Positions 33,666-61,738 of a DNA stretch of 64,000 bases are shown in pieces. A program made the translations under genes and the position numbers. The notes under the pieces are model-generated. The model did not search any database and was not told the origin of the DNA. It was given only the letters and a program-made list of their open reading frames with translations. The stretch lies in the NCBI RefSeq assembly GCF_056712565.1, contig NZ_CM160072.1, one strand, 5' to 3'. Numbering within the stretch: position 1 is the first letter of the stretch; each line of letters starts with the position of its first letter.

Positions 33666-33680
33666 TTACCTTTCGGGTAA
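33666..33680. promoter_or_regulatory. Operator-like palindrome TTACC-N5-GGTAA
   Basis: TTACCTTTCGGGTAA; member of a family of 10 perfect sites in the prophage. Confidence 0.45.
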
Positions 33681-33717
33681 TTTGCAAAACGTGCTGGATA
33701 GCAAACAAATTATTTGT

Positions 33718-33737
33718 TACTGTATAAACATACAGTT
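33718..33737. promoter_or_regulatory. LexA (SOS) box
   Basis: TACTGTATAAACATACAGTT = CTGT-N8-ACAG with TA-rich spacer, 20 bp upstream of ATG 33757. Confidence 0.6.
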
Positions 33738-33756
33738 ATTGCATGGAGAAGATAAG

Positions 33757-34014
33757 ATGCAGCAGTATCACTATCCACTGGAAGACGGATTTACCGAAAG
33801 GATTCACACGCCGGGAGGCGTCAGATCACTGGTGGAGGGATCGCTCTTGATGAAATTACTCCGGGATCTCGATAAGGATGGATTTAATGTCGATGGCCCA
33901 CTTGCCGAACTGACTGCACTGATTAACTACGTCACCAGCTCACAGATGTCTATGCGGGATCTGCAAACACATCTCGACTATTGTGCCGAACAATTACGAA
34001 AACAAACCAGATAA
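33757..34014 (+). CDS. Small antirepressor-like protein (85 aa), paralog of the Ant C-terminal domain
   Basis: MQQYHYPLEDGF...; aligns with C-terminus of the BRO-N protein; RBS GGAGAAG; track start 33634 is an extension. Confidence 0.55.
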   Translation: MQQYHYPLEDGFTERIHTPGGVRSLVEGSLLMKLLRDLDKDGFNVDGPLAELTALINYVTSSQMSMRDLQTHLDYCAEQLRKQTR

Positions 34015-34017
34015 GGT

Positions 34018-34046
34018 TTGCAATTACCAAATGGAGTGCTTATATT
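34018..34046 (+). promoter_or_regulatory. Sigma70-like promoter for antirepressor gene
   Basis: TTGCAA, 17-bp spacer, TATATT; abuts operator 34046-34060. Confidence 0.45.
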
Positions 34047-34060
34047 TACCTTTGCGGTAA
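34046..34060. promoter_or_regulatory. Operator-like palindrome TTACC-N5-GGTAA
   Basis: TTACCTTTGCGGTAA overlapping -10/+1 of the antirepressor promoter. Confidence 0.45.
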
Positions 34061-34326
34061 ATTTACATCGCACTCCTCTTGTGCCATAGTAATCGGGCAC
34101 TGGCAAAATCCAGTGCCGGGATTGGCGTCCCGAGTTACTACAGAGGCACATATGCCGCATAAGCGGTTTTTTTATGTGTAAAGCGCACCTATTCTATGGT
34201 GGGCTGTGTGGGGGCACCGAAAGGTGCGCCGGGTCCTTTGTAGCCGGTTACGCCAACCCTGCACAGTTCACCACCAACCGATTGGCGTCGGTAGTGGTGA
34301 TTAACCTAACTACAAAGGTGATCGCC

Positions 34327-35019
34327 ATGAATACCAAACCTTCCATCTTTTCCTTTGAGTCATCCTGCCAGATCCGTATGTTCATGATTGACGGAGAACC
34401 TTGGTTTGTCACCAAAGATGTGTGCAATGCTTTGAATATTGATGTTACACAAGCGAGAAAACTTGATAAAAAAGGCTGGAACAAAAAGGGGCTGTATTCA
34501 ATACAGACCCCTGGTGGAATACAAGAACTATCCATCGTTTCAGAATCAGGTCTCTACATCCTTATTCTGCGTTGCAAAGAGGCAATGACTGAGGGAACGA
34601 GAGCATTCAGATTTCTTGAATGGGTTACAGGCGAAGTACTTCCTCAGATCCGCCGCACCGGAAGCTACATTAAAAACTCGCTCCCGCAGGAAGAACGCAT
34701 AAAGATGGTTGCCGACCAGGTAGCCAACGCCACGGCGTCAGCAGTAATGCAGGCGATGAAGATAGAGAACAAAACCTACAGCGCCCCACTGAAGCCCGGC
34801 TACCGCAGCCTGATTCATTCGCCGTCTGGTGTTCTCGGCCTGACGGAGAACTCACTGCTGATGAATCTGCTGAACCAGTTACAGGAAGACGGGCACGACG
34901 TATCGGGCGCGGCGGCGGAGCTGACCACCATGTTCTGCTACATCGTCGGTGTGAGCAAGTGCCTGCGTGATATCCAGACGCACGCGGAGTACATCAACGA
35001 CAAGGCTGGGTTCTTCTGA
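34327..35019 (+). CDS. Antirepressor, BRO-N N-terminal domain plus Ant-type C-terminal domain
   Basis: GEPWFVTKDVCNALNI...GLYILILRCKEA...EWVTGEVLPQIRRTG BRO-N signature; ATG 34327 with RBS AAGGTG. Confidence 0.75.
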   Translation: MNTKPSIFSFESSCQIRMFMIDGEPWFVTKDVCNALNIDVTQARKLDKKGWNKKGLYSIQTPGGIQELSIVSESGLYILILRCKEAMTEGTRAFRFLEWVTGEVLPQIRRTGSYIKNSLPQEERIKMVADQVANATASAVMQAMKIENKTYSAPLKPGYRSLIHSPSGVLGLTENSLLMNLLNQLQEDGHDVSGAAAELTTMFCYIVGVSKCLRDIQTHAEYINDKAGFF

Positions 35020-35027
35020 CGGGCGGC

Positions 35028-35046
35028 GGCACATGGATGTGCCTTT
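35028..35046 (+). terminator. Candidate terminator after antirepressor gene
   Basis: GGCACAT-gg-ATGTGCC hairpin then TTT. Confidence 0.35.
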
Positions 35047-35085
35047 AAAATAATCATTGGCGATGTGATGTAGATTCGCGTAATA

Positions 35086-35100
35086 TTACCTTACGGGTAA
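35086..35100. promoter_or_regulatory. Operator-like palindrome TTACC-N5-GGTAA
   Basis: TTACCTTACGGGTAA, 60 bp upstream of ATG 35160. Confidence 0.45.
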
Positions 35101-35159
35101 GAAAGCGTTTTTAATCTTCCCTTCAAAACGCGTCCTGTAGCCAAACATGGGAGGACGAA

Positions 35160-35792
35160 ATGAAAACAAATACAACAAGAAAAGCGATGCCATACATTAT
35201 CCCAGAAGCAGATTTCGACAGAAAACTGAACATGTCTGAGAAGAACACTAGTCACACCGAAAGCTACTTAGCGAAAGGTGTGGTTGATTTCGTTCTTCCG
35301 GGATTCACAACACCTTATGGTTATCGCCTTGTAAAATCTTGTAATGGCGATCATTACAGAATGATTACTACCAGCGATACTCCAGAAACGGTGTATGCGG
35401 TTAAGTTAATCTTTCGGGAAGATATCGTCGAAGCTAAAAGAACATGTACGCAGATCATGGTATGGCGTACGCCTAATGTTATTCATGACCGTGCTGTTCA
35501 TGGTTTGCCTCAGATTTTTTTTCAGTTCTTCCTAGAGCAATATGCGATCGTTGTATCTGATGAGCAACAAACAATCGATGGGAGAAGATTCTGGGAAAGA
35601 ATGATTTCTTGGGCTATAAACACCCCGGGATATAATGTATACGTTTCAGATGGCTCTGAAGAAGATAGACCTCTTAGCTTCATGACATCATGGGATGATT
35701 TCTATAGCCAGTGGGCTGATTTCTGTTGGGGCAGTGATAAAGATGTGCATACCCACAGACTACTGGTTATAAGCAAAGATAAACTGCATTAA
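35160..35792 (+). CDS. Hypothetical cytoplasmic protein (210 aa), moron
   Basis: Own operator, RBS GGGAGGA and terminator; Trp-rich C-terminus; no family recognised. Confidence 0.55.
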   Translation: MKTNTTRKAMPYIIPEADFDRKLNMSEKNTSHTESYLAKGVVDFVLPGFTTPYGYRLVKSCNGDHYRMITTSDTPETVYAVKLIFREDIVEAKRTCTQIMVWRTPNVIHDRAVHGLPQIFFQFFLEQYAIVVSDEQQTIDGRRFWERMISWAINTPGYNVYVSDGSEEDRPLSFMTSWDDFYSQWADFCWGSDKDVHTHRLLVISKDKLH

Positions 35793-35796
35793 TAGA

Positions 35797-35818
35797 AGCC
35801 CGCAGCGCGGGCTTTTTT
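35797..35818 (+). terminator. Rho-independent terminator
   Basis: GCCCGC-agc-GCGGGC then TTTTTT. Confidence 0.55.
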
Positions 35819-35890
35819 GTGGACGAAACAAAAGTCAGTGCTACACTCATTGACGCCACATTGAGGTGGCTTATAGATGGAAATTTCACA

Positions 35891-36052
35891 ATGAAAAAAA
35901 CATTTGCTGCACTGTTCGTTTTGTTGTCTCTGGTAGCTTCAACTCAGGCCTTTGCCGGTCGTTGTCAGCACGACAGCGATACTGCTGCTGACGGCTCCCG
36001 CTGCGGTGGGCGTTCTGCGGATTCCCGCCCGGGCGGCGGTGGCATTCGTTAA
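35891..36052 (+). CDS. Candidate small secreted peptide (53 aa)
   Basis: MKKTFAALFVLLSLVASTQAFA signal peptide, then 2-Cys Gly/Arg-rich 31-aa tail; weak RBS. Confidence 0.3.
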   Translation: MKKTFAALFVLLSLVASTQAFAGRCQHDSDTAADGSRCGGRSADSRPGGGGIR

Positions 36053-36058
36053 AAACAA

Positions 36059-36074
36059 GGCCGCGAAAGCGGCC
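36059..36074 (-). terminator. Terminator ending the minus-strand virion operon
   Basis: GGCCGCGAAAGCGGCC hairpin followed on minus strand by TTGTTTTTAA. Confidence 0.5.
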
Positions 36075-36075
36075 T

Positions 36076-36087
36076 GTGACATGTCAC
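36076..36087. repeat. Perfect 12-bp palindrome GTGACATGTCAC (copy 1 of 3)
   Basis: Exact copies at 36076, 53468, 55919. Confidence 0.5.
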
Positions 36088-36088
36088 G

Positions 36089-36649
36089 CTACATTGATAT
36101 ATGATTCATAAAGTAGCTTAAAGATTTACTTCCCAGAAAAGAAATTTCTTTTCCTGGATATGTCGCAATAATTGAGCATGACTTATCCCCGTTAGAGGTA
36201 ACAAATCCTGAATAACCTACTTGTTCTTTACCATTTTGTTGCTTGGCTAAAAAGTAGAGGTAGCTTATCTTTTTGCCCTCTGGGTAAAACTCTGCCAAAC
36301 CAGTATCGGTGATTGAATATTTTATTCTCCCGCCTTGAGTAACGTTTTCCATCTCAAGTTTAGCTATGTCTTTTCTGTTGTATTCAGCATTGATTTTCCT
36401 TTCGAAATCAATGTTGTTTTCAAATGAGTAGGAAGCAACAGTCTGAATAGATGGGAACACGTTTATCTGGATGCCCCCACAGTCGGCACAGGTATAAAGG
36501 TATGAATCAGATGGAATCCCCATAAAAGAAAACTGAGTTACCTTAAATTTATCGCTATCTCCAAAGTATTGAAGTTCGCATTTAACATTTTGCCCTGCAA
36601 AAGAAAATGCAGACATCAATATTGAAACAAAAAATATAATTGCCTTCAT
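36089..36649 (-). CDS. Secreted Cys-containing protein (186 aa), AT-rich moron at end of virion operon
   Basis: Signal peptide MKAIIFFVSILMSAFSFA; ATG 2 nt after stop of upstream gene. Confidence 0.55.
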   Translation of the reverse strand: MKAIIFFVSILMSAFSFAGQNVKCELQYFGDSDKFKVTQFSFMGIPSDSYLYTCADCGGIQINVFPSIQTVASYSFENNIDFERKINAEYNRKDIAKLEMENVTQGGRIKYSITDTGLAEFYPEGKKISYLYFLAKQQNGKEQVGYSGFVTSNGDKSCSIIATYPGKEISFLGSKSLSYFMNHISM

Positions 36650-36651
36650 TA

Positions 36652-39204
36652 TTATTTACCTAGCATGAACTGCGATGGTGGGATCAGAAAGTCGTTCCCC
36701 TGCTCACGCTCAACACGGCGCTGATAACGCTCAAGAGAGCCTGGGTCAAGGGCATCTTGTATCCGGTTCAATATTAAACCATTCATCGCCGTACGAAGCC
36801 AGAACACGTTGAGGAATGGCGTATTGTCAAGTGCCGTGCGATACCAGTCACCCAAATCTGCATCCCCTCTCGTGGTCTGCTGGAGCAGCGTGATAATGCT
36901 GTCAGCGTTCGATGCTGCTGGCCCCATTAGCGACGTAACCGGCCCGGCCCCCATGCGGTTGACCTCACCAAACATGAAGTCACCCAAGATGCCAAGACCG
37001 CCCCCCTGAGATGCGGCTGCGAGAAACGTCTTGGCATCTGCCGGGCGTGGTGTTTGCCCTTTCAGCATGAGTTTTGACTGCATGGAGATATAACCAAACA
37101 TAGTCGCCCAGACAAAGAGGTTTGCAGCACCAAGGAAAGCCCCCTTCCCGTTACGTAGCAGCGCATTCGTCAGCGATCCGGTTTTCGACTCACCAAGCCC
37201 AGCAGGAATATAACCACGCCCGAATACTTCGCGTCCTAGTACGTTCTGCATGAAGCTTGCAGTGAACGATTTGTACTGACCAGCGAATCGTATTGCTTCC
37301 CCAGCCACCGTTCCTGGCACCGTGCCCATCTTCATAAACGCCTGCGTGCGATCGCCAGGCTCTGACATGGCGATATTCAGACGGTCAAGGATGTAGCCGC
37401 GCAACTGCCCTTCCAATTGATCGCGTGCGTCAGCGATAGCGCGCTGCGTTGGTTTGATCCCCTTACTCTCTACATAACCGGCAATCACTTCGTCAGGCAC
37501 GCCGCGGATGCCGCTGGTCGTCATGAACTTACGACCTTCGCTATCGGCCATGTCCATGTTGCGAAAAATTTCCCACTCACGTTCGCCAATACCGTGCAGA
37601 TCCAGCACGCGTCGCAGGTCTTCCGGTAGCCGCGCATGAGACTGGTCAGCATTCTTTGCAAGCCAGTTGGTTATCATCATGGCGTTGCTGTTGCGACCGC
37701 TCTCGGTCCAGAAGTTCATGAGGTTGTACTTAAAGAAAAGCTGCTGCGCGCGACCAAGCTTTCCATTCAGCGTGTCATCACCAGATATGCGCCGGATGAT
37801 TTCCTGCGTCATGGAGTCGGAATAAACTCCGATAGAGGAAAGGATCTCTTTCTGCTCCGCGCTGTTGTAACGCGTGAAGCGGCCTCTCATAGCACCAAGC
37901 AACGCCTGCATAAAATTCTGCCCTTGGTAGCGCATCTCGGTAGCGGCGATAGGCACGTCGTTAAACGATGAGATTACCGCGCCACCAAGTTGGCTCATAC
38001 GCAACCAGCCGCGTACAGCCGCCGACGCATTGGCCCAGCCTACGCTGCCAGGAATATTTAGCGAGCCGTCAACCTGCGGCATTACGGTACGGTTAATGCG
38101 ACGCACCTTCGTCATGTAGTCAGCCAACGCTGCCGGTCTTCCGGATTTGCTGATATCTTCAGCAATGGCGTCCGTCAGGTACTTAAACATGTTCTGTGGG
38201 TTAGTGCCCAGTACGCGCATCATGCCCGTTGTGCGGGCAGCGCTGTTTAAGCCACCAAACAGCGCTTCTCGCAGGCTGCCGGTGCCGAATTGCTGGTTGT
38301 ACTCGTGCCACGAGATACCATCTTTGAAGTGCAAAATTCGCTCTTGGCTGGCGCGTTTAGCTGCGTTCGCCGATCCCTTAAAGCCATTCATCCAATCGGG
38401 CTTTTCAGATGTAAGATGCACGCCGGAAGCCAGCCCGTTATAAATGTTACGCATGAACTGCTCGCGGTCAGCCACGCCGTCAAAAGTGCGCTCATCAAGG
38501 CGCGGGAGAATAGCATTTCGCCATGCTTCATAACCTGCGGCGCGGATCTTCATGATGTCGTGTGACTGGCGCACTATATAGCCCGGCTCTTTGCGTATCC
38601 ATGCCCCGGCGCGGTTCTCATCAATGCGCGCAGTTTCCTGCCATTTCATGATGATTTGTGCAGCGCTTACGGATTGCTTTGTCATACCGTCAGTTGACTG
38701 CCCGCGCCCTATGCGCCACATTGCATCGGCAATTTCCCGGTCATTGCTGCCGCTGGCGATGAATTGCACCAGCCCGGCACGGTCAAAATCGTAGTTGATA
38801 CCGGAATGATACTTGCCGCGCAGTTGCGCCACCTCCGAAGATACCGACCGGCGGGCGCCGGTACGCGCATCGTTGCGGCCAACCAGCATTGCTTCAAGCC
38901 CGATATCCGGGCGGTCTTTCCAGATAGTACGAAGCTCTCTAAGTCGTTGTGCGGCAATACGGGCGTCGATTGCCTTATTGCGAGCCTCAATCTGTTTTGC
39001 CAGCATATCGGCATTGCTCAGTTCTTCCGCTGCGCGCATCGCGGCCTCTTCCAGAGACAGCGCCTCATTGGTCGCCAGAATTCGCCTAGTGGTGTCGTTC
39101 ATGTCACGCACCAGCGACTCCATCTCATCGGAAGAAAGCTCGCGACCAGCGGCAGCATTTACACTGCGCTCGCACTGCGTCAAAAATTCGTTTGCTGCCA
39201 TCAC
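36652..39204 (-). CDS. Large internal virion / DNA-ejection protein (850 aa)
   Basis: Position between tail-tube-like genes and tailspike; overlapping starts/stops with neighbours. Confidence 0.55.
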   Translation of the reverse strand: MMAANEFLTQCERSVNAAAGRELSSDEMESLVRDMNDTTRRILATNEALSLEEAAMRAAEELSNADMLAKQIEARNKAIDARIAAQRLRELRTIWKDRPDIGLEAMLVGRNDARTGARRSVSSEVAQLRGKYHSGINYDFDRAGLVQFIASGSNDREIADAMWRIGRGQSTDGMTKQSVSAAQIIMKWQETARIDENRAGAWIRKEPGYIVRQSHDIMKIRAAGYEAWRNAILPRLDERTFDGVADREQFMRNIYNGLASGVHLTSEKPDWMNGFKGSANAAKRASQERILHFKDGISWHEYNQQFGTGSLREALFGGLNSAARTTGMMRVLGTNPQNMFKYLTDAIAEDISKSGRPAALADYMTKVRRINRTVMPQVDGSLNIPGSVGWANASAAVRGWLRMSQLGGAVISSFNDVPIAATEMRYQGQNFMQALLGAMRGRFTRYNSAEQKEILSSIGVYSDSMTQEIIRRISGDDTLNGKLGRAQQLFFKYNLMNFWTESGRNSNAMMITNWLAKNADQSHARLPEDLRRVLDLHGIGEREWEIFRNMDMADSEGRKFMTTSGIRGVPDEVIAGYVESKGIKPTQRAIADARDQLEGQLRGYILDRLNIAMSEPGDRTQAFMKMGTVPGTVAGEAIRFAGQYKSFTASFMQNVLGREVFGRGYIPAGLGESKTGSLTNALLRNGKGAFLGAANLFVWATMFGYISMQSKLMLKGQTPRPADAKTFLAAASQGGGLGILGDFMFGEVNRMGAGPVTSLMGPAASNADSIITLLQQTTRGDADLGDWYRTALDNTPFLNVFWLRTAMNGLILNRIQDALDPGSLERYQRRVEREQGNDFLIPPSQFMLGK

Positions 39205-40898
39205 ATCCCCCGGTTAATCATACAGGCGGCAAATGCCCGGAAAGCGTTGCTCATGCTATTGTCGCTGGCGTCGGCACGAATATCATTGAGTTTCTGGCGC
39301 AACGTGGTCGCAAGATCAGGGTTATCGACAGCGATATCGTCAAGCAGGGCGTTACTCAGGTTGAGCTCGTTATCAAGGTCTGCAGCGGCAGCGGTAATTT
39401 CATGATCTGCCTTTTGCGTTTCTTGATAAACCCGATCGGCTGTTTCGCTTGCTGGGCGAGCCGTTTCATCAACCTGCCGTGCCGGGTTCTGTATGCGATG
39501 GATGGCGCGTTCACGCAGTGCTGGTTTGTGCAGTTCATAGAAGGGCTCAACATCTGGGCTACGTCCTTCCATCATGTGTGCCAGCGCAGCGCGATACGCC
39601 TGCTGGTTCACGTTCCAGTCAGCATCCCTGATGGCGCTTGCGGCAGTGCGAACTGCGCCAGCGACCGGCGACATCTGCATGCCGTCCAGGATCTGCTGCG
39701 CACGCTCGGAAATGGTGACTTTCAGGTCGTCGGGGATCTCGCCGCGGGAAATCTGAGACTGGCGCCAGCGCGCCTGCTCTGCTGTCGCGTTCTGCTCCAG
39801 CGATGTGTTGATCTCCTGATTGCGTGCAGCGATGGCGTCTTTCTCGGCCTGAATCTCTTTCAGTGCCCTAGAGCGCGCATCCTTAAACTTCATCCGCTGC
39901 CCCTGATACTTTTTGGTGCGCTGCTGCAGCGTCGCATCAAGCGAGTCAGCATGACGTTGATTAGCCGCAAGCTCGGCACGCAGGTCGGCAACGTTACCGA
40001 TCTGCCCGCTCTGTAACTCCTGCTGGCGCGCCATATAGTCAGGAACCACGTCGTCATAAGCCCGGCTGTATGCGTAGCTCTCCGCTTCACTGGAAATGGC
40101 CGCCGCCAGATCTGCGTTAGCGCCAACCTCAGGGATATTCACGCCCGCCGGAATGTTGTCAGGCGTTATCACCGGGGTTGGCTGCGCATCGCCAGAAAAC
40201 GCCGGGGACTCTCCCGTTGCAGCATCGGGAACGCGACGCGGTCGCACGATATCGGCGATAAGGCCGCCGCCGGCATGCATTAGACCGCCAGCCATCGTGT
40301 TAAAGAAAGTACTTTCCAACGCGTTGCTATAGGTGAAGTCGTCACCTTCCGCCGCCGCTGCCAGCCCGGTAAGCGGCACGGTCACCAACGCCTGCGCTGC
40401 CCCCATGCGTGCACCAGCAACAAATCGCTCGCCAAATCGGCCAAGCACAGAAGCCGCCTTTGCTTCTCCAGCGAACGGAACCAGCGCCAGCGCCACGTTA
40501 CCAGGATCTGCCATTGAACCAGCTAGGCTGGCTGCGAAATTAAGCGGCGTGGCTACCCACCCGCTCGGTGCCGACATCGCGATCTGCTGGCGTGCCAGAG
40601 AATCTTTGCGTTCGGCAATAACATGATCGAGAAAAGCCTGCGTAACGCCAGAATCTGGCACGTTTATGCTCTTTACGCCGTACTGCTTCAGGAGCTCATC
40701 CGCTTCCTGCTTACTGATAACTGTAGAGTTTGGGTCATTCGCCAGCGAGTCGGCCTGCGCAAAGCGGTAGCCGGACATGACCGGCCCCTCTTCAAATCCC
40801 TGCTTAAGGGAAGAAAGCAGCGATTCGCCAAGCCCTGCTGGCGCGTTGCCAATTGGCTGGTTAATTCCCTGTCCCGGATCATCTGTGTAAATTGGCAT
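39201..40898 (-). CDS. Internal virion / ejection protein (565 aa)
   Basis: Ala/Gly-rich with coiled-coil C-terminus; coupled to flanking genes. Confidence 0.55.
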   Translation of the reverse strand: MPIYTDDPGQGINQPIGNAPAGLGESLLSSLKQGFEEGPVMSGYRFAQADSLANDPNSTVISKQEADELLKQYGVKSINVPDSGVTQAFLDHVIAERKDSLARQQIAMSAPSGWVATPLNFAASLAGSMADPGNVALALVPFAGEAKAASVLGRFGERFVAGARMGAAQALVTVPLTGLAAAAEGDDFTYSNALESTFFNTMAGGLMHAGGGLIADIVRPRRVPDAATGESPAFSGDAQPTPVITPDNIPAGVNIPEVGANADLAAAISSEAESYAYSRAYDDVVPDYMARQQELQSGQIGNVADLRAELAANQRHADSLDATLQQRTKKYQGQRMKFKDARSRALKEIQAEKDAIAARNQEINTSLEQNATAEQARWRQSQISRGEIPDDLKVTISERAQQILDGMQMSPVAGAVRTAASAIRDADWNVNQQAYRAALAHMMEGRSPDVEPFYELHKPALRERAIHRIQNPARQVDETARPASETADRVYQETQKADHEITAAAADLDNELNLSNALLDDIAVDNPDLATTLRQKLNDIRADASDNSMSNAFRAFAACMINRGM

Positions 40899-40899
40899 G

Positions 40900-49490: not shown

Positions 49491-49498
49491 TTCCTCTC

Positions 49499-52169: not shown

Positions 52170-52183
52170 TTCAATGACTCCGG

Positions 52184-52390: not shown

Positions 52391-52458
52391 ATCAATGACT
52401 CCGTACGCAATTAAATTATTACCAATTTAACCACATATGATTTATTTATCGTAGAAGG

Positions 52459-52495
52459 TTGACATTTAACGCGTTAATTATTACCTTTCAGGTAA
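52459..52495. promoter_or_regulatory. TTGACA -35-like hexamer plus operator-like palindrome (52481-52495)
   Basis: TTGACA at 52459-52464; TTACCTTTCAGGTAA at 52481-52495. Confidence 0.4.
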
Positions 52496-52816
52496 CCAAG
52501 AGCTCATTCTGGTTACTAACCTGACTGGCTTGTCGTTAAATTAAACAGGTGGAGTGAGCTTTTATTTTGAGCAGTACGGCGTATGGCACATGCGCCGATA
52601 GCGGTCTGGATACGTTTAAGGGGCACCCTCCCTTGCTCGGGCAAACGAACCAGGTAGCCGGAATGTGCAAGTCGAGCGGTTTTATTCCGCGCACGGGGAT
52701 TCACCATCCCGGCGATTCGGTGTGACGCCTCGGAAGAGACGAGGGTACAACGATGAGAGCATTTATGGAGCCGCGACAAAGTGTGGCGCCTTAACAGGCT
52801 AAGTGCTCTCAGCGTT

Positions 52817-52893
52817 GTGGCATTAGCTCAGTTGGACAGAGCAACCGCCTTCTAAGCGGTTGGTCGCAGGTTCGAATCCTGCATGCCACGCCA
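52817..52893 (+). tRNA. Phage-encoded tRNA-Arg, anticodon UCU
   Basis: Cloverleaf by hand: acceptor GTGGCAT/ATGCCAC, D-arm GCTC/GAGC, anticodon stem ACCGC/GCGGT, loop CTTCTAA, T-arm GCAGG-TTCGAAT-CCTGC, CCA end. Confidence 0.85.
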
Positions 52894-53463: not shown

Positions 53464-53467
53464 CACC

Positions 53468-53479
53468 GTGACATGTCAC
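53468..53479. repeat. Perfect 12-bp palindrome GTGACATGTCAC (copy 2 of 3)
   Basis: Immediately before the bidirectional terminator. Confidence 0.5.
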
Positions 53480-53483
53480 AAAC

Positions 53484-53510
53484 AGCCAGCCGATGAGCTG
53501 GCTTTGTTTT
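53484..53510. terminator. Rho-independent (probably bidirectional) terminator
   Basis: AGCCAGC-cgatga-GCTGGCT then TTGTTTT. Confidence 0.6.
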
Positions 53511-53553
53511 ATCCTCACCAGAGGATATCAGCAGTATTATCCCCACCAGCGGA

Positions 53554-55029: not shown

Positions 55030-55622
55030 TGATTGCCATCCTGACGTTCTTTCAGTCTCTTCCTGGCTGCCGCTATGCGATCAGCAATTGTCACATTCAC
55101 ATTAACATCCAGGCGTTCTTTGAATGCGTTGACGTCGACGTGCTTACCAATCAGTTCGAGGTTCTTCACCTTGTCAGGCCATTTAATTTTTTTGAGGATT
55201 GTCTCTATCGAATCCTCGTTCATGTTCATGATGGTCGATGACAGATCAAAGCCACTAAGCGTAGTGCGCCAGATTTTCGGCCACTCGCGGATTGGCTTAA
55301 GGCTCCCATCGTCGTTGAGGATGTCGATCACGTCCATCTGGTCGATCTCCACCAGGCGCATGAGAACGTAATCAGCACTGACGCGCATTCGTTTGTTGCG
55401 CTCCTCCATCAACTCGGCAATCCGTTTTTGAATGCGTTCATCGCGCATCATGACACTGGCTTTAACTGCCGCTGTATTTGGGGAGAATCCTGCGTTAATC
55501 GCTGCCTGAGTCTGGTTTTCAGGCGTTTTGATGTATGACTGGCAATAAGCCTCCTGCATTGCTGTTAGTGGCTTAAATTGCGTTGATTTGCGTTTATAGG
55601 TTTTAGGTTCAGCAGGCATCAT
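55026..55622 (-). CDS. Terminase small subunit
   Basis: ATG 55622/55619 preferred; track start 55700 is a TTG extension over a terminator and operator. Confidence 0.55.
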   Translation of the reverse strand: MMPAEPKTYKRKSTQFKPLTAMQEAYCQSYIKTPENQTQAAINAGFSPNTAAVKASVMMRDERIQKRIAELMEERNKRMRVSADYVLMRLVEIDQMDVIDILNDDGSLKPIREWPKIWRTTLSGFDLSSTIMNMNEDSIETILKKIKWPDKVKNLELIGKHVDVNAFKERLDVNVNVTIADRIAAARKRLKERQDGNQ

Positions 55623-55639
55623 AACCACCGTGGTAATAG

Positions 55640-55654
55640 TTACCGTTGTGGTAA
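55640..55654. promoter_or_regulatory. Operator-like palindrome TTACC-N5-GGTAA upstream of packaging operon
   Basis: TTACCGTTGTGGTAA, 18 bp upstream of small-terminase ATG. Confidence 0.45.
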
Positions 55655-55663
55655 TAGTACCAT

Positions 55664-55691
55664 GCAAAATAAAGCCGCCATAGTTGGCGGC
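55664..55691 (-). terminator. Terminator separating early/middle operon from packaging operon
   Basis: Minus strand GCCGCCA-acta-TGGCGGC then TTTATTTTG. Confidence 0.5.
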
Positions 55692-55696
55692 AGTAT

Positions 55697-55909
55697 TCAA
55701 AGTCCATCAAATTCATCGTAAAAACTCTCGTCAAGATACCCTTCCCATTTACCGCGAATGAAAATTACATCCTCGCCGCAAGGGTGCTGACTGTCGATAA
55801 CTATATCCCTCCTGGCGCAACCATACTTATGCATGAGAAATTTAACCTCTTTCGGAAAATTTGCTGAGTTATCTCTCATATCTTCAAGGTCGTAGCGTAT
55901 TTTTGGCAT
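55697..55909 (-). CDS. Hypothetical protein (70 aa)
   Basis: ATG 55909 with RBS AAGGTG; track start 55930 is a GTG inside the palindrome. Confidence 0.35.
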   Translation of the reverse strand: MPKIRYDLEDMRDNSANFPKEVKFLMHKYGCARRDIVIDSQHPCGEDVIFIRGKWEGYLDESFYDEFDGL

Positions 55910-55918
55910 AACACCTTC

Positions 55919-55930
55919 GTGACATGTCAC
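55919..55930. repeat. Perfect 12-bp palindrome GTGACATGTCAC (copy 3 of 3)
   Basis: Overlaps stop codon of gene 55927..56265. Confidence 0.5.
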
Positions 55931-56265
55931 ACTATTAATTTCGTTTCATGCCAGCCTTTGGTCACCCAGCATTGCGAGTCACCATTACACGGGCATGAAT
56001 TAACTGGAACTCTCTCGCCGCACTTACCGCAACGTTTTCTGCTGATCGATTTTATACGCCCGCGCACGCGTGCATCATCCTGGCGGATCAGTAACGCTAT
56101 ATACTCACCAAATTCGTAAGGCGCACGCCCGGGGCGACGCGTGGCACAGTTACGCTCCAGCATTTCAATTTCCTGAGCATCAAGCACAATCTCCAGTTTA
56201 CGCACACCAGATGCAGCTTGTCTGGCTCTCTGAGCGGCTTTGCGCTCTGCTGCTGATTTAGCCAT
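55927..56265 (-). CDS. Hypothetical basic protein with Cys cluster (112 aa)
   Basis: ATG 56265 with RBS AAGGTG; CGKCGERVPVNSCPC motif. Confidence 0.4.
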   Translation of the reverse strand: MAKSAAERKAAQRARQAASGVRKLEIVLDAQEIEMLERNCATRRPGRAPYEFGEYIALLIRQDDARVRGRIKSISRKRCGKCGERVPVNSCPCNGDSQCWVTKGWHETKLIV

Positions 56266-56539
56266 CAATATTCACCTTTATCGCGAACACCTTTACCGGT
56301 TTATCTCCGAAGTGCGGATGTGTGATTGTCTTGATTTCATACCCTTCATACGGGACGTCTATTCTGCGACTGGAATCGTCACGCTTCGGATATCCCTTTG
56401 TGATAATCAGGCGGTCATACTCGCGGAACATAATTCGCTTATTCCAGTAGTCATTACACAGGCGATACTCTTCCGTTTTCTCTCCGCGAATCATGGCATC
56501 GAAGTATTCACCTTTAACGGCAAGTTGCAGGTTAGCCAC
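56258..56539 (-). CDS. Hypothetical protein (93 aa)
   Basis: GTG start with strong RBS GGAGG. Confidence 0.45.
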   Translation of the reverse strand: MANLQLAVKGEYFDAMIRGEKTEEYRLCNDYWNKRIMFREYDRLIITKGYPKRDDSSRRIDVPYEGYEIKTITHPHFGDKPVKVFAIKVNIDG

Positions 56540-56816
56540 GACCTTCCTCCTTTGGCTTGTGAATTTGTATCGTCATGCCGCTTTGAGTGGTGACTACAAC
56601 GACAGAACCAGGCTGAAGACTGTTAAGATTGAATGCTTCGTAAAACGAAGCCAAGGCCAGCGCTTTTTTATTCTTTCGGTTCCACCAACGCCATCCATTG
56701 CTACAGGCTACACTGACAATCCACTGTCCACTCCTGTAAGCCATATAAAACCAGATGAGCAAAACCTGAATGAATGCTATCCAGTCAATAATCGTATATT
56801 TCGCGAAGGAGACCAT
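56532..56816 (-). CDS. Small membrane protein (94 aa)
   Basis: ATG 56816 overlapping upstream stop (TGATG); one or two TM helices. Confidence 0.4.
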   Translation of the reverse strand: MVSFAKYTIIDWIAFIQVLLIWFYMAYRSGQWIVSVACSNGWRWWNRKNKKALALASFYEAFNLNSLQPGSVVVVTTQSGMTIQIHKPKEEGRG

Positions 56817-57394
56817 CAATTAACCTCCTGCGGCGGTTCCGGTAGAGGCATCCAGTACAAGGCGTTCCCTAACCACGATAAAGTGCCGTCGCTCAACTCC
56901 ACGTATTCCCCTTGTACCTGTCCTGCCATATACTCGCCGTGCTTTGAATAAATTAAAATCCAATCATCTTGAGCGGGCATTCGCTCACTACAGCTTATCC
57001 AACCATCCGGAGTTACCGGATAGTTGCCCGACAGCTCGTTCAACTTGTAAGTTTGGCTTACAGGTTCGGCTTCCAGTTCTGCAATGCGCTTCTCTGCAGC
57101 TTCCAGCTCAACGCGCAGCTTCCCTACCGTTAGCGCAATTTCCTCGTTCTCCTGGTCGCGGGATTTGATGTATTGCTGGTTCCTTTCCCGTTCATCCAGT
57201 AGTGCCAAAGCAATCTTTGGATTAAAGGCAGCAATAAATTCAGCGTTGTTTTTCAGAACGTGTTGCGCAATGGCCTGACTACTTAGTCGGACCTCATAAC
57301 CACGTGCGCCACGGTGTGGTTTATATGAGTCCCAGTCTCCCCACGTTGCTTTTTCTGCCTTAGCACGCAGTGCCTGATAATCAATCTTGCTCAC
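56816..57394 (-). CDS. Ead/Ea22-like protein
   Basis: GTG 57394 with RBS AAAGGAGG; coiled-coil N-terminus; track start 57475 rejected. Confidence 0.45.
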   Translation of the reverse strand: MSKIDYQALRAKAEKATWGDWDSYKPHRGARGYEVRLSSQAIAQHVLKNNAEFIAAFNPKIALALLDERERNQQYIKSRDQENEEIALTVGKLRVELEAAEKRIAELEAEPVSQTYKLNELSGNYPVTPDGWISCSERMPAQDDWILIYSKHGEYMAGQVQGEYVELSDGTLSWLGNALYWMPLPEPPQEVN

Positions 57395-57683
57395 TGGTTG
57401 CCTCCTTTGCTGGGCTTTCGAATGTATCAAGCTCAAACAACTTAACCACGTCATCAAACAGGACATAATCGCCATCAGAATCTTCAGTCATGTCAGCGCC
57501 ACAATCCTGACCGCACGAGTCACAACCATCCATATCAAGCTCGTATCGCTTCAGGTTTACGATATTTGATAAATTCAGCGCCAGTACAGCCAGGTCATAA
57601 ACCTCTTCGGCAGTGACATCGCTGTTCAGTCCCATTTCATGGCGATATATGATTTTTCCTACTCGTTGTTTTGTGATTGTCAT
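57381..57683 (-). CDS. Hypothetical acidic protein (100 aa)
   Basis: ATG 57683 overlapping upstream stop. Confidence 0.4.
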   Translation of the reverse strand: MTITKQRVGKIIYRHEMGLNSDVTAEEVYDLAVLALNLSNIVNLKRYELDMDGCDSCGQDCGADMTEDSDGDYVLFDDVVKLFELDTFESPAKEATSEQD

Positions 57684-58147
57684 TTTTGCTCACCTCCCTG
57701 TTCTTCCAGAAAAATACGCATAGCCTCAAGCATCTCTTCGGTGTCATACGGTGACAACTTGTCACGCAGGATGTGTTCAATGCTGTTAATGAACTTGCGG
57801 ATTGCTTTGCGTTCAATTTCAGCTAGGAAAGCATCGGTGGCTGGGGTGTCAACACGGATACTGTCGCGCAAGATGAAAAATGCATTGAGCATCCCAGTCT
57901 CCGGCACTTCATCCTGATACTTCTCATACGCATCAAGAGCCTTCATCATCTCAGGTCCGAATGGTTGAGGGTGCGCAGCCTTCAGCGCCGCATTCTCCGC
58001 TGCCAGCGCATTAGCACGCACCAGTTGCACTTCCAGTTGCGTTGCCAAACAGCGAACAAGCACGGATGGTGCGCCTGTCATGTCGTCAGCTAACGCATGC
58101 CCTGATGCCACTAAATCTTTGATCATACCTTCAGCCATACTTTCCAT
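57680..58147 (-). CDS. Hypothetical protein (155 aa)
   Basis: ATG 58147 with RBS GAGGGT. Confidence 0.4.
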   Translation of the reverse strand: MESMAEGMIKDLVASGHALADDMTGAPSVLVRCLATQLEVQLVRANALAAENAALKAAHPQPFGPEMMKALDAYEKYQDEVPETGMLNAFFILRDSIRVDTPATDAFLAEIERKAIRKFINSIEHILRDKLSPYDTEEMLEAMRIFLEEQGGEQK

Positions 58148-58208
58148 CTTTACCCTCGCTTATCCACATAACTTATTGATTACATTGATAACTAAAAAGA
58201 TCGTCGAT

Positions 58209-58553
58209 TCAGAACTCTTCGATGTTCCAGCCGCAACCTGCTTTCTTTGGTTTAACCGTTACCCCGATGATTCGGAACGGATACTGATCTGCGGCGACTT
58301 TGGTTTTCACCCTGGCGTCGTCGGTCCAGAAACCTTTCACTTCGTGCAGTTCCATCTCTCCGGTGGCGAGCATCACAGCGAAATCTGGCGTATAGAACGT
58401 GTTGTCAGCTAACCGCAGCTTGATACCCTCGAATCGATACCAGGCGATTTCCCCTGCACGTTTACGCAGCTCAAGGTGCTGGCAATACGCAGATTCTGTT
58501 TTGTTCATCTGGCCTGTTTTGAGTCGACCAAGAGCCTGTATCTGTTTTCTCAT
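58209..58553 (-). CDS. Small PD-(D/E)XK-like nuclease-fold protein
   Basis: YTPDF...HEVKGF motif. Confidence 0.45.
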   Translation of the reverse strand: MRKQIQALGRLKTGQMNKTESAYCQHLELRKRAGEIAWYRFEGIKLRLADNTFYTPDFAVMLATGEMELHEVKGFWTDDARVKTKVAADQYPFRIIGVTVKPKKAGCGWNIEEF

Positions 58554-58556
58554 GAT

Positions 58557-58571
58557 TTACCTCTAAGGTAA
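58557..58571. promoter_or_regulatory. Operator-like palindrome TTACC-N5-GGTAA
   Basis: TTACCTCTAAGGTAA immediately upstream of ATG 58553. Confidence 0.45.
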
Positions 58572-58618
58572 TTAAAAACCACATAAGACACGAAATCAAT
58601 AGATCTAAGAACATTTTG

Positions 58619-58633
58619 TTACCTATTGGGTAA
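58619..58633. promoter_or_regulatory. Operator-like palindrome TTACC-N5-GGTAA
   Basis: TTACCTATTGGGTAA in P / nuclease-like spacer. Confidence 0.45.
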
Positions 58634-58670
58634 CTATTGAGGCGTAAAAAAATGCGCTATCGCGCTGGTA

Positions 58671-59471
58671 TTACTTGATAAATCCTGCTGCCTTTCCTCG
58701 CCTGTATTCCTCCATCAGCCACTGCGCCGGTGTTATTCCCCCCAGGGTGGCGGCGTTAGGCATGCACCCGAAACTTCGCCCTGGTGGATGGTAAACGTCT
58801 CTCCCTGTGTCCGGAGGTGTACTCATGGGCTCTGGCTTTGCCTGTATGCTGATCACCGGATCGGGTATCTGCTGTCCGGAAGCCACCTTTTTCGCCCAAT
58901 CATCGAGCAACCTGCGCGCGTGTTTCTCAACCTCAATCTCGCTAAGCTGGCGCTGATACATTGCACGGCGGGTATCACATACGACCCAGTACATAACCGG
59001 ATGCCGCCACGGGAATCTTTCGGGACCACCAGGATATAAACTTTTTTCCTTGCTGTACCGGTGAAACTCCGCCATCACATCGTCAATGGTGACGCCAAGA
59101 ACCATCTTGCTGTCTTTACACCACTTGATGAATTGCCCTGGCGACGGCCAGAACGGAGACTCACTGGCGCGAGCGTGGCGCATACCAGCAGAAACCTGTT
59201 CACGGGTTCGGATCCCACCTTCGGCAAACGCAGCAATCCACTGCTGTTTTGCAGCAACTTCCTGCTCTGGCGTCTTCAGGTTGGTTACCACTGCCGCCGG
59301 AAACAGTTGTTTCAGCTGTTTGAAAAGGGCATCAACAAGTCTCTCTGCTGACATGTTCACCACATTGTCATTGTTGACGTACTGATGCTCATAACCTGAC
59401 ATGCGAGAAAGGGCTTCTCCGTCACGGTTTTGTATCGCGGTAAAAACGTTGTTCACAAGAAATCCTCCCAT
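58671..59471 (-). CDS. Replication protein P-like (helicase loader)
   Basis: WIAAFAEGGIRTREQVSAGMRHARASESPFWPSPGQFIKWCKD resembles recalled lambda P segment. Confidence 0.7.
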   Translation of the reverse strand: MGGFLVNNVFTAIQNRDGEALSRMSGYEHQYVNNDNVVNMSAERLVDALFKQLKQLFPAAVVTNLKTPEQEVAAKQQWIAAFAEGGIRTREQVSAGMRHARASESPFWPSPGQFIKWCKDSKMVLGVTIDDVMAEFHRYSKEKSLYPGGPERFPWRHPVMYWVVCDTRRAMYQRQLSEIEVEKHARRLLDDWAKKVASGQQIPDPVISIQAKPEPMSTPPDTGRDVYHPPGRSFGCMPNAATLGGITPAQWLMEEYRRGKAAGFIK

Positions 59472-60268
59472 GCTTCAGGGCTGTTCCAGTGCGGAACGTT
59501 GTTATCAGGTAATGTTGATTGCTTCTGTCTGCTAATCTGCAGCCGCCTTGCCAGCTTCTGCTCCCACTGTGCCTGATGGTATGCCTTACCCTCAGCCATC
59601 CAGTAAATTCTGAACTCTGCAAGTTCCTGTGCCGTTGGCAGACTGTCCAGGTAGATCCCCTGCAATGAGCTTTTCCGAAGAAAGTCATCTGATGGTTGCC
59701 ATTGTTCATGCATGACAAATTTGCCTAATTGCCCTGGCCCACCAGGAGGAACAAAGTTATTCATCACGGCGTTGTTTGCGCCGGGGTCATTAGGCACAGA
59801 ATCCCCGCTTTTTGTCCTGCTCTCCCTCTCTTGGTTAAATGACTGGTTATATGACTGGTTCTGGATCCCGTTTTTGGGATCATTCAACATCCCGTTTTTG
59901 GGATCATTCAACATCCCGTTTTTGGGTATATTCCCGTTTTCGGTAACATTACCGTTTTCGGGTTCATTACCCCCTTCCCGGTTGCCTTTAATGTTCCCGT
60001 TTTTGGTTATATTAAGAGAGAAAACCCGCACTCTTTTCGTCGCTCCCTTTCTCTCTCCGGTATCTGAAATAAGCCCCATTTTCATGAGCGATATAAGCCC
60101 GGCCTGCACGGTTTTTTTATTCAGGCAAGTGTCTTTAACGAGGCGTTCTATGCTGGGGTAGCAGAGGTTATATTCATCGGCTCTGTCAGCCATCGAGAGC
60201 AGTATGAGCTTTAATGACGAGCTACCTGGATCTGTCTCCCAGGCCCAATCTGTTGCATGTCTGCTCAT
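59453..60268 (-). CDS. Replication initiator O-like protein (origin-binding)
   Basis: HTH N-terminus; internal repeated PKNG peptides encoded by iterons; RBS GGAG. Confidence 0.65.
   Translation of the reverse strand: MSRHATDWAWETDPGSSSLKLILLSMADRADEYNLCYPSIERLVKDTCLNKKTVQAGLISLMKMGLISDTGERKGATKRVRVFSLNITKNGNIKGNREGGNEPENGNVTENGNIPKNGMLNDPKNGMLNDPKNGIQNQSYNQSFNQERESRTKSGDSVPNDPGANNAVMNNFVPPGGPGQLGKFVMHEQWQPSDDFLRKSSLQGIYLDSLPTAQELAEFRIYWMAEGKAYHQAQWEQKLARRLQISRQKQSTLPDNNVPHWNSPEAWEDFL
59862..60010. repeat. Origin-like iterons inside the O-like gene
   Basis: Two exact 24-bp tandem copies CCCGTTTTTGGGATCATTCAACAT (59866, 59890) plus about 4 CCCGTTTT(T)GG variants. Confidence 0.6.
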
Positions 60269-60283
60269 GATTAATCTCCGCTA

Positions 60284-60484
60284 TCAGCTTGAATGTTGTG
60301 GGGTGGAATTAATCATGATCTGCTTAATCTCTGCCCTGATGCGACGGTTTGATTCCATGGTGCACTCAACACAGTGTCCGTTGTAAACCCAGCGTTCACT
60401 GTCATGTCCGTGCTTACATGGTTTTCCGGTGTAGTAGCGTTTAAGTCCGCGCTTTGCGGCATCAATACGTGTAATGATTTCCAT
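60284..60484 (-). CDS. Small zinc-ribbon-like protein (66 aa), cII-position gene
   Basis: ATG 60484; CKHGH...CVEC motif; between cro-like gene and O. Confidence 0.4.
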   Translation of the reverse strand: MEIITRIDAAKRGLKRYYTGKPCKHGHDSERWVYNGHCVECTMESNRRIRAEIKQIMINSTPQHSS

Positions 60485-60564
60485 GGTAAGCCCTGTTATT
60501 AGTATTGGGATTACGGTTATTTTGTGCTGACACAAAAAAAAGATCAACCAGATTTGGTTTTTTA

Positions 60565-60579
60565 TTACCTTTGAGGTAC
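60565..60579. promoter_or_regulatory. Imperfect operator-like site
   Basis: TTACCTTTGAGGTAC (one mismatch). Confidence 0.35.
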
Positions 60580-60594
60580 GAATAGATATGAAAA

Positions 60595-60612
60595 GACCGC
60601 CGGGTGGCGGTC
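60595..60612 (-). terminator. tR1-like terminator after cro-like gene
   Basis: Minus strand GACCGCC-accc-GGCGGTC then TTTTCAT. Confidence 0.5.
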
Positions 60613-60634
60613 TACAGAGGGTTGTAGCTGGATA

Positions 60635-60865
60635 TCATGAGTAGAAGAAGTATGCCAGTTCTGCTTTTGAGCGCAGCCATTGTCTTGTTTTACAGGCTTT
60701 AAAAAGCCCATTCATCAATACTTTACCTGGCATTTTTCGCTTACCTGTTAAGTGAGTCTGGATATAGTGACTCGTCGTTCCGGCTTCCTGTGCGAAGGCT
60801 TCACGCTCATCCGGAGTAAGTGCAAGCCAGTGCTTTTTGAAATCGAAATGTCCGTTATCGCTCAT
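60635..60865 (-). CDS. Cro-like HTH regulator (76 aa)
   Basis: Divergent from cI-like gene across the operator cluster; HTH LTPDEREAFAQEAGTTSHYIQ. Confidence 0.55.
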   Translation of the reverse strand: MSDNGHFDFKKHWLALTPDEREAFAQEAGTTSHYIQTHLTGKRKMPGKVLMNGLFKACKTRQWLRSKAELAYFFYS

Positions 60866-60901
60866 AGCTATTGCCTGATATTTATTTCAGATAATAAATA
60901 T

Positions 60902-60964
60902 TCACCCATAAGGTAACAAAAATCAAGGATAGTTACCTATGAGGTGCATTTACCTGTTGGGTAA
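60902..60964. promoter_or_regulatory. OR-like tripartite operator region between cro-like and cI-like genes
   Basis: TCACCCATAAGGTAA (60902), TTACCTATGAGGTGC (60933), TTACCTGTTGGGTAA (60950). Confidence 0.5.
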
Positions 60965-61019
60965 TATTGCTTTAAATTGAATCATCTACTGATTCATATA
61001 TGAGGCGATTTTCCAGAAA

Positions 61020-61604
61020 ATGAAAAGTATCCAGGACGTCCGCAGGCAAAATCTCAACGACTTGATCGACCGTGAATTCAATGGTGTTCAGACGCGGATG
61101 GCAGAAAAACTTGGAACTCAGGCAAATCTGGTAAACCGCTGGGCTCTTGGCAAGAAGGTTATCGGCGACCAGGTTGCGCGAAAAATTGAAGCTGCCGCCA
61201 ATAAACCCCGTAACTGGCTTGATATCGATCGCTCGCTTTCTCAGGAAGGTTTTCAGCCTGTCGGCCCAAGCGACATTGGTCAGCTGGCGGCTCACAACCT
61301 GGAACGCTGGATGAGCGAAAGCCGCGACCTTTCAACACAGGGAAAACTTCACCGCGCATCCGGCGTCGCCCAGGTGACAATCAGCCGCCTGTTAAACAAT
61401 GAGGTCAGCGTTTCCATTTCCACCCTGGAGAATGTTGCATCCGCATTCGGGCGTCACGGCTATGAATTACTGATTCACCCGCACGACCCTGCGACTATCA
61501 ACTATGACCGCTCGCGCTACGCATTGTTACCCGAAACAGAGAAGGCAAAGATCGAAAGTTACATTGAATTTGTCATCAGCCAGAACGAAAAAAACAAACA
61601 ATAA
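61020..61604 (+). CDS. CI-like repressor, HTH type, no recognisable LexA-type autocleavage domain
   Basis: 194 aa, two HTH-like segments, no Ala-Gly/Ser-Lys S24 motifs; followed by terminator. Confidence 0.65.
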   Translation: MKSIQDVRRQNLNDLIDREFNGVQTRMAEKLGTQANLVNRWALGKKVIGDQVARKIEAAANKPRNWLDIDRSLSQEGFQPVGPSDIGQLAAHNLERWMSESRDLSTQGKLHRASGVAQVTISRLLNNEVSVSISTLENVASAFGRHGYELLIHPHDPATINYDRSRYALLPETEKAKIESYIEFVISQNEKNKQ

Positions 61605-61625
61605 AATCATATTTTTCAGTAAGTA

Positions 61626-61648
61626 AGCCGCCTCATGGCGGCTTTTTT
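61626..61648 (+). terminator. Rho-independent terminator after cI-like gene
   Basis: AGCCGCC-tcatg-GCGGCT then TTTTTT. Confidence 0.6.
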
Positions 61649-61661
61649 ATTGCCAGCAAGA

Positions 61662-61738
61662 TTACCTTATGGGTAATTTTTTTAACTCATATCTATTGAC
61701 ATCAAACCAGATACGCATAATCATTACCTCAACGGTAA
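61662..61738 (+). promoter_or_regulatory. pL-like promoter flanked by two operator palindromes
   Basis: TTACCTTATGGGTAA (61662-61676), TTGACA 61696-61701, ATAATC -10-like, TTACCTCAACGGTAA (61724-61738). Confidence 0.5.

Follow-up and report, generated by a model that had tools for sequence, protein, structure and literature searches.

The right-hand 36 kb of a 64,000-nucleotide stretch of DNA (contig NZ_CM160072.1 of RefSeq assembly GCF_056712565.1; below, 'the window' means this whole stretch) is a podovirus prophage of the phiV10/epsilon15 type, genus Uetakevirus, in which a 15-bp palindrome, TTACC-N5-GGTAA, recurs. Our analysis points to this palindrome as the operator of Rep, the main repressor of the prophage, sitting on the promoters of nearly all of its transcription units, a reading to which we assign a probability of about 0.85. 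The prophage has the gene order and structural genes of phiV10 and epsilon15, shares 97-98% DNA identity with phages PAS61, phiv142-3 and phiV10, encodes a capsid protein 100% identical to that of phiV10 and carries its late genes on the minus strand. The integration site is the 3' end of guaA, with pdeF, yfgH and yfgI on the opposite side, and matches the one reported for phage ZX5 (PMC9782041).

A motif search located ten perfect copies of the palindrome in the window, all of them within 33666-61738 (starts at 33666, 34046, 35086, 52481, 55640, 58557, 58619, 60950, 61662 and 61724), exactly as a sequence-only reading of the window had listed them. The chance figure given there, about 0.03 copies per 36 kb, is correct as a simple expectation, and none of 100 dinucleotide-preserving shuffles of the window yielded even one perfect match. 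Among palindromes of the 5-N5-5 form in the prophage part, enrichment is confined to the TTACC arm, with 10 copies as against three at most for any other arm. The three imperfect copies of the earlier list are likewise present, two with one mismatch (60565 and 60902) and one with two mismatches (60933), and a fourth, which that list lacked, lies at 55622 with one mismatch, 18 bp from the perfect site at 55640. Perfect copies are absent from the 27.9 kb of host DNA on the left side of the window, from 5.7 kb of host DNA adjoining the opposite end of the prophage in APEC E18055, a near-identical strain, and from a further 100 kb of that strain including a complete lambdoid prophage, where one-mismatch copies occur at chance level. 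Within the approximately 134 kb sampled, the motif is thus not as frequent outside the prophage as within it.

Over 47 sites from five genomes the consensus reads A-TTACC-WWWWW-GGTAA-T, the central base being A or T in 46 of the 47, and both the dyad symmetry and the size of the site are typical for a helix-turn-helix (HTH) dimer. The same 47 sites show a strand bias in the central five bases, which are A-rich on the late-gene strand (positions 8-10: A 29/24/28 versus T 17/10/4), beyond what a symmetric dimer site explains. Strand asymmetry had also been considered as a clue to mechanism, since on the plus strand of the window the sites read TTACCT and often ...GGGTAA; this was dropped, as across the 47 sites only the A-rich spacer on the late-gene strand holds and the orientation relative to transcription is inconsistent.

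The related phages, to which the sequence-only reading had looked for a check, bear the motif out: there are 8 copies in phiV10, 11 in epsilon15, 9 in Enterobacter phage Tyrion and 9 in Klebsiella phage BUCT711, in homologous intergenic places, and 8 copies, again in homologous places, in the half of the SPC32H genome that was examined. The Rep proteins of these five phages are 42-99% identical to that of the window. Common to the relatives are one site in front of terS, one in front of the gp3-like gene with which the head-tail operon starts and one separating ant from the tail-fibre gene, together with two sites at pL, two or three between rep and cro, and two after the replication genes. 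In epsilon15 all 11 sites fall within the intergenic 6.6% of the genome, for which the chance probability is approximately 1e-13. Seven of them carry the annotation 'protein_bind, repressor, lysogeny' in GenBank record NC_004775.2, while four are unannotated, and annotated epsilon15 positions are matched by the window sites at pL, at the ant/tail-fibre junction, downstream of the replication genes and in front of terS and the gp3-like gene. With such operators on record for epsilon15, the idea of dispersed repressor sites has a precedent in this phage group. A full-text literature search for the motif returned only unrelated papers, and a paper on the LF82 'Gally' prophage, considered as a source, was set aside because it concerns a P22-like phage.

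The positions of the sites relative to promoters are most regular at two places in the window. The pL-like sigma-70 promoter (TTGACA-17-AATCAT, 61696..61724, plus strand) has an upstream operator at 61662..61676, just after the rep terminator (61625-61644), and a downstream operator at 61724..61738 that covers the transcription start. Downstream of the replication genes, a sigma-70-like promoter that we read from the sequence, conserved in five genomes (TTGATT-17-TTTAAT, 58571..58599, minus strand), precedes the unit running from a DUF1064 gene to the gene for a 112-residue protein, p55; its upstream operator lies at 58619..58633, and its downstream operator at 58557..58571 covers the start site as well as the ribosome-binding site of the DUF1064 gene. 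In both cases the two operators around the promoter are exactly 62 bp apart.

This arrangement recurs widely. A scan of IMG/VR for site pairs with a spacing of 47-77 bp yielded 120 loci, and the centre-to-centre distance among unique pairs was 62 bp in 104 cases and 63 bp in 16, no other distance being found more than six times. In 94 of 95 unique 62-bp cassettes TTGA occupies spacer positions 20-23 in exactly one orientation, and in these 94 a -10-like hexamer follows, its last T doubling as the first base of the downstream operator. The layout is hence operator, 19 bp, -35, 17 bp, -10, operator, with the downstream operator covering the start site: the cassette is a rigid, conserved module in which a sigma-70 promoter sits within two operators. 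Rep homologues with 30-100% identity are encoded by 87 of the 120 loci, and about ten further loci represent the post-replication cassette, too distant from rep for rep to be included. The fixed 19-bp distance from operator to -35, which the promoter itself does not need, suggests that the pair may be bound cooperatively. No statement of a fixed 62-bp cassette was found in the epsilon15 record NC_004775.2. Separately, IMG/VR contigs without a detectable Rep homologue (L033, L019, L038, L112, L120 and about 15 others) carry the same palindrome in arrays with 18-24 bp spacing, which may represent a different system using the same half-site.

The other operators are placed in comparable ways. Between rep and cro, a perfect operator (60950..60964) stops 2 bp short of TTGCTT, a hexamer upstream of rep that we read as a possible rep -35; the two-mismatch copy (60933..60947) lies 17 bp from it, and a one-mismatch copy (60902..60916) is found between the -35 and -10 of the cro promoter (TTGTTA-17-TATTAT, 60919-60891, minus strand). 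Another one-mismatch operator (60565..60579) is located just downstream of the cro terminator (60613-60594, minus strand), upstream of the replication genes. Two operators stand before terS, a perfect one (55640..55654) between the terminator that closes the early-right arm (55691-55674, minus strand) and terS, homologous to the epsilon15 site 12-27 ('repressor'), and the one-mismatch copy at 55622..55636. Site pairs 17-18 bp apart, as at these two places, also occur in epsilon15, SPC32H, BUCT711 and IMG/VR loci.

Single sites lie in two divergent regions and at two further promoters. The operator at 52481..52495, between the tRNA-Arg/p03 unit (plus strand) and the head-tail late operon (minus strand), covers the -10 region of a perfect TTGACA directed at the tRNA-Arg/p03 unit and is homologous to epsilon15 2931-2947 ('repressor'); that at 33666..33680, between ant (plus strand) and the tail-fibre gene (minus strand), is homologous to epsilon15 19895-19911 ('repressor'). 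The operator at 34046..34060 abuts the -10 of a promoter (TTGCAA-17-TATATT, 34018-34046) that serves an antirepressor unit described below, and the one at 35086..35100 abuts a TAATAT -10-like hexamer upstream of a gene for a 210-residue protein. At five promoters the site lies either over the -10 edge and start point or between the -35 and -10. The sequence-only reading had placed copies at every transcription-unit boundary; they do occupy the promoter or intergenic DNA of nearly every unit, with the promoter of the lysis cassette as the exception. Beyond the window, which stops about 2.8 kb before the int end of the prophage, there is no perfect operator in the remaining stretch; a one-mismatch copy, TTACCTTAAAGGTAT, in the interval that separates guaA from the integrase gene and 57 bp upstream of int (L006:5753-5767, outside the window), is a possible int operator.

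The organisation of the early-right arm agrees with direct control of each unit. Intrinsic terminators after cro, after P and before terS split the arm into cro, the replication genes, the DUF1064-to-p55 block and terS-terL. Each terminator is followed by its own operator or operators, and a promoter-like hexamer pair is also present for the post-replication and terS units, so that the layout does not require N-type antitermination. The proposal that one DNA-binding protein directly gates each unit is in this way supported for nearly every unit.

Both the predicted binder and its predicted antagonist have counterparts of known structure. The rep gene (61020..61604, plus strand) encodes a 194-residue prophage repressor with an N-terminal HTH DNA-binding domain and a C-terminal HTH-like oligomerisation and Ant-binding domain, and this cI-like protein matches SPC32H Rep (PDB 5D50_A) over its full length (E 4e-42, residues 1-190 of 194). 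No Peptidase_S24 or LexA-type self-cleavage domain was found in Rep, for which Pfam yields HTH families only and PHROG and NCBIfam give HTH-type regulators only. Within the N-terminal HTH the string NLVNRW..G.K.IG...AR.IE, which we read as the predicted recognition helix and its flank, shows no variation among five genomes, in contrast to the diverging linker and C-terminal domain; an invariant predicted recognition helix fits the invariant operator half-site.

The antirepressor gene ant (33757..34014, plus strand) encodes an 85-residue small antirepressor that matches the SPC32H antirepressor (PDB 5D50_E, E 5e-45, residues 2-84 of 85). A consensus LexA box, CTGTATAAACATACAG, lies at 33720-33735, 22 bp before the ant start codon, and the identical 16-mer precedes ant in SPC32H and epsilon15. 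A second gene of this kind (34327..35019, plus strand; PHROG 130/450) encodes a Bro-N protein whose C-terminal 80 residues make up another Ant-like domain (74 residues align with Ant at 45% identity, E 1e-21). Its leader contains two RNAs recognised by Rfam, the isrK Hfq-binding RNA (34097-34173) and a C4 antisense RNA (34192-34278, 79.5 bits), both downstream of the operator at 34046 and upstream of the Bro-N/Ant gene. Three plus-strand genes or units had been taken for morons; two of these are instead the antirepressor genes ant (33757-34014) and the Bro-N/Ant-like gene (34327-35019).

Work attributed to Kim and Ryu (2013, J Virol) and Kim et al. (2016, PNAS) is said to have established that SPC32H Rep is left uncleaved in the SOS response, that it binds DNA as a tetramer and that LexA-controlled Ant strips it off the DNA. 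The point on the tetramer and the palindrome for Rep of the SPC32H type is summarised in PMC9638917. In phage ZX5, whose Rep is 99.5% identical, overexpression of Rep abolished free phage and lowered holin and endolysin mRNA by 99.97-99.99% (PMC9782041).

These elements suggest how the prophage may be controlled. In the lysogen, Rep on about 14 operators would occlude RNA polymerase at nearly every promoter, shutting each unit directly. Two operators 62 bp apart would enclose the pL-like and post-replication promoters, two sites 17-18 bp apart would act at the rep/cro switch and before terS, and single sites would serve the divergent ant/tail-fibre and tRNA/head-operon regions, the second-antirepressor promoter and one accessory-gene promoter. 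Rep is probably a tetramer with two DNA-binding pairs, which paired sites at either spacing would suit; we infer that binding to such pairs is cooperative and that some of the operators are also used by the Cro-like protein. Induction would follow the SPC32H route: upon DNA damage LexA would be cleaved and leave the ant promoter, Ant would be made, and Rep would be released from all operators at once. The late units would probably need a phage-encoded activator in addition.

Several observations weigh against assigning the sites to Rep, or against parts of this scheme. The Cro-like protein (76 residues, 60635..60865, minus strand), whose gene comes first behind the rightward lytic promoter and which matches PHROG 35 ('transcriptional repressor') with E 6e-13, has an HTH segment, AGTTSHYIQ.HLT, that is invariant in the five genomes, and is thus conserved to the same degree as the HTH of Rep, so sequence alone cannot assign a binder to each site. 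The repressor-site annotation of epsilon15 may itself be a prediction. All relatives found, with Rep 30-100% identical, keep TTACC-N5-GGTAA, and as no relative has a different motif, a test of repressor-operator co-variation is impossible. The 62-bp distance is partly set by promoter geometry and is by itself no proof of looping or cooperative binding. Finally, no operator is present at the lysis-cassette promoter of the prophage, which makes gating by Rep incomplete; the corresponding promoter has a perfect operator in epsilon15 and one-mismatch copies in phiV10, Tyrion and SPC32H.

The conservation of the Cro-like HTH, its PHROG class and the sharing of operators by Cro and CI in lambdoid phages would all suit a system in which the sites are bound mainly or only by the 76-residue protein, damping all units in lytic growth, with Rep confined to the rep/cro switch. 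We nevertheless consider this unlikely: silencing of late, antirepressor and accessory promoters suits a lysogenic rather than a lytic repressor, the epsilon15 record assigns the sites to the repressor, and Rep overexpressed alone abolishes lytic transcripts in ZX5 (PMC9782041). If the palindrome were instead the target of a phage activator that switches units on, such as the 112-residue protein at the Q position or a PerC-like protein, its location next to promoters, some of them with a weak -35 or -10, would make sense, as would the high conservation of the unclassified p55. Yet the position of the site at five promoters would occlude RNA polymerase, the flanked promoters include the strongest consensus one, the pL-like TTGACA-17-AATCAT, and the longer element CATATRNGGTT, specific to the late units, is a better activator target, all of which makes an activator site very unlikely.

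We give the least credence to a reading in which the repeats mark module boundaries or recombination points, or serve as a signal for packaging or methylation, and play no part in transcription. Sites do occur at junctions of variable gene content, as at 35086, where the gene for the 210-residue protein that follows is absent from phiV10, but the offsets to the -35 and -10 are fixed in 94 of 95 cassettes, the sites are confined to intergenic DNA (11 of 11 in epsilon15), their dyad symmetry and size are those of an HTH dimer site, and a methylase target would be shorter and also present in genes. A Rep operator remains our preferred reading of the palindrome.

Direct gating by Rep is probably not the whole of the regulation. 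The sequence-only reading had suggested gating by one protein in place of a cascade, and in this respect it was not supported: the late units (head-tail operon, tail fibre and lysis cassette) have no recognisable -35, and share the element CATAT[AG]NGGTT, with the palindromic core CCATATATGG, which lies upstream of all three in every genome examined and always on the late-gene strand. In the window the copies are at 52429-52439 (head-tail operon), 33626-33636 (tail-fibre gene) and 30196-30206 (lysis cassette), all on the minus strand; the element stands 7 bp upstream of a TAnnAn hexamer, and about 0.1 copies per genome are expected by chance. We regard it as a candidate activator-dependent late-promoter element. 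ATGTGGTT was considered as part of the operator system and rejected, because it is also found in the spacer of the post-replication promoter and only the longer CATATRNGGTT marks late units.

Where lambda has Q, the early-right arm closes with the gene for p55 (55927-56265, minus strand), a basic protein with a C-terminal cluster of cysteines. It is 72-89% identical across the genus, whereas the capsids of these phages are only about 42% identical. No family match was found for p55 in Pfam, PDB or NCBIfam, and an AlphaFold model built with 18 close homologues had a predicted local distance difference test (pLDDT) score of 52.6 and was unusable. With regard to lambda-type Q antitermination of the late genes, the sequence shows a terminator before terS and this conserved, Cys-rich protein; p55 is our candidate for a late regulator. 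Since the late units share an element but lack a -35, and p55 is conserved at the Q position, we consider a phage-encoded late activator likely, and with it a temporal cascade that adds to Rep gating.

A second palindrome was seen at the ends of units. The perfect 12-bp palindrome GTGACATGTCAC occurs three times in the window (36076-36087, 53468-53479 and 55919-55930): it stands where the late operon, the p03 unit and the early-right arm end, and its copy at 55919 overlaps the p55 stop codon. A stop codon precedes the palindrome and an intrinsic terminator follows it in all five Uetakevirus genomes, and as RNA the palindrome would form a 4-bp hairpin directly 5' of the terminator hairpin. Its GTGACA was tried as the -35 of a Q-type late promoter and discarded, as by eye this fits Tyrion but not the window or phiV10.

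Two regions differ from those of related phages. Downstream of the operator at 35086, window positions 35160-36052 (plus strand) hold the gene for the 210-residue protein (PHROG 1349) and a small signal-peptide-like open reading frame (ORF), both absent from phiV10; PADLOC searches for defence systems and Pfam searches gave no match for these accessory genes, PHROG 1349 being the sole family match of the 210-residue protein. In the lysis-cassette promoter region (30135-30442) the late element is kept and the operator absent; the tail-fibre module of the prophage also differs, and the fibre gene is not separated from the lysis genes by a gene for O-antigen modification. Within 52458-52893 (plus strand), on the strand opposite to the late genes, lies a tRNA-Arg (anticodon UCU) with the perfect TTGACA about 350 nt upstream; the ORF p04 annotated in phiV10 overlaps this tRNA and is probably spurious.

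More tentatively, the observations can be combined into a single picture, which as a whole we hold to be possible but doubtful: a rigid promoter clamp, one operator code for the genus and double control of the late units. One Rep tetramer might hold both operators on the same face of the DNA, enclosing the RNA polymerase site. All Uetakeviruses of Escherichia, Salmonella, Enterobacter and Klebsiella might keep one operator code despite divergence of Rep down to 42% identity, in which case the specificity of immunity and induction would evolve in the pair formed by the Rep C-terminal domain and Ant and not in DNA recognition. The late units might answer both to a Rep operator and to an activator reading the CCATATATGG-type element, with p55 as the candidate activator.

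The analysis offers a functional reading for a widespread type of E. coli prophage, avian pathogenic and O157 strains included, in which nearly the whole prophage would be held silent by a single antirepressor-controlled repressor through about 14 operators, and it re-annotates two 'morons' as induction genes. The fixed two-operator promoter cassette represents a compact, portable and tightly repressible promoter design, and the system is suited to testing how a tetrameric repressor uses paired sites. Current understanding is not overturned, as epsilon15 already carries the principle in its annotation and the protein machinery of SPC32H is solved; the details for which we found no annotation concern the 62-bp cassette with its strict spacing, an operator that does not vary across the genus, the element of the late units and the palindrome associated with terminators.

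Scattered operators for one repressor are a feature of several known phages. Phage P1 has a C1 repressor with operators dispersed over the genome, these being asymmetric 17-mers (ATTGCTCTAATAAATTT), and an immI region consisting of a c4-icd-ant operon. Similar to P1 C1, a single repressor would here control many separate operons, the antirepressor-operon promoter included, and as in immI a C4 antisense RNA is found in the leader of an antirepressor operon under a repressor operator. Unlike the C1 operators, the window site is a 15-bp palindrome, and Rep is an HTH_3/XRE-type homologue of 5D50 whose family matches name no C1-type family, no direct comparison with P1 C1 having been made; the predicted induction by LexA-controlled Ant likewise differs from the Coi/Ant circuitry of P1. 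Mycobacteriophage L5 has gp71 'stoperators', asymmetric sites that share one orientation within transcription units and act by blocking elongation. The prophage resembles it (compare PMC1934351) in having many repressor sites along its whole length, but these sites have dyad symmetry and are situated on promoters or in intergenic DNA.

The lambda CI/Cro switch resembles the present system in the divergent rep and cro genes with several operators between them, the pL-like promoter beyond rep and the terminators that segment the arms. It differs in that the window operators extend beyond the immunity region, that Rep has no domain for RecA-stimulated self-cleavage, and that every early-right terminator is followed by its own operator or operators, a layout that does not require N-type antitermination. 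By all criteria that can be tested in sequence, the prophage system belongs to the Rep-Ant family of SPC32H and epsilon15. It shares with the SPC32H switch (PDB 5D50/5D4Z) Rep and Ant proteins homologous over their full lengths, and with both phages the identical LexA box before ant, a Rep without a self-cleavage domain, the operator core and the genome positions of the operators. Rep of the window is only 42% identical to that of SPC32H, the divergence lying mostly in the linker and C-terminal domain, and compared with SPC32H and epsilon15 the window prophage lacks the lysis-unit operator, and adds an operator-controlled accessory gene and a Bro-N-fused Ant-like gene behind an isrK/C4 leader.

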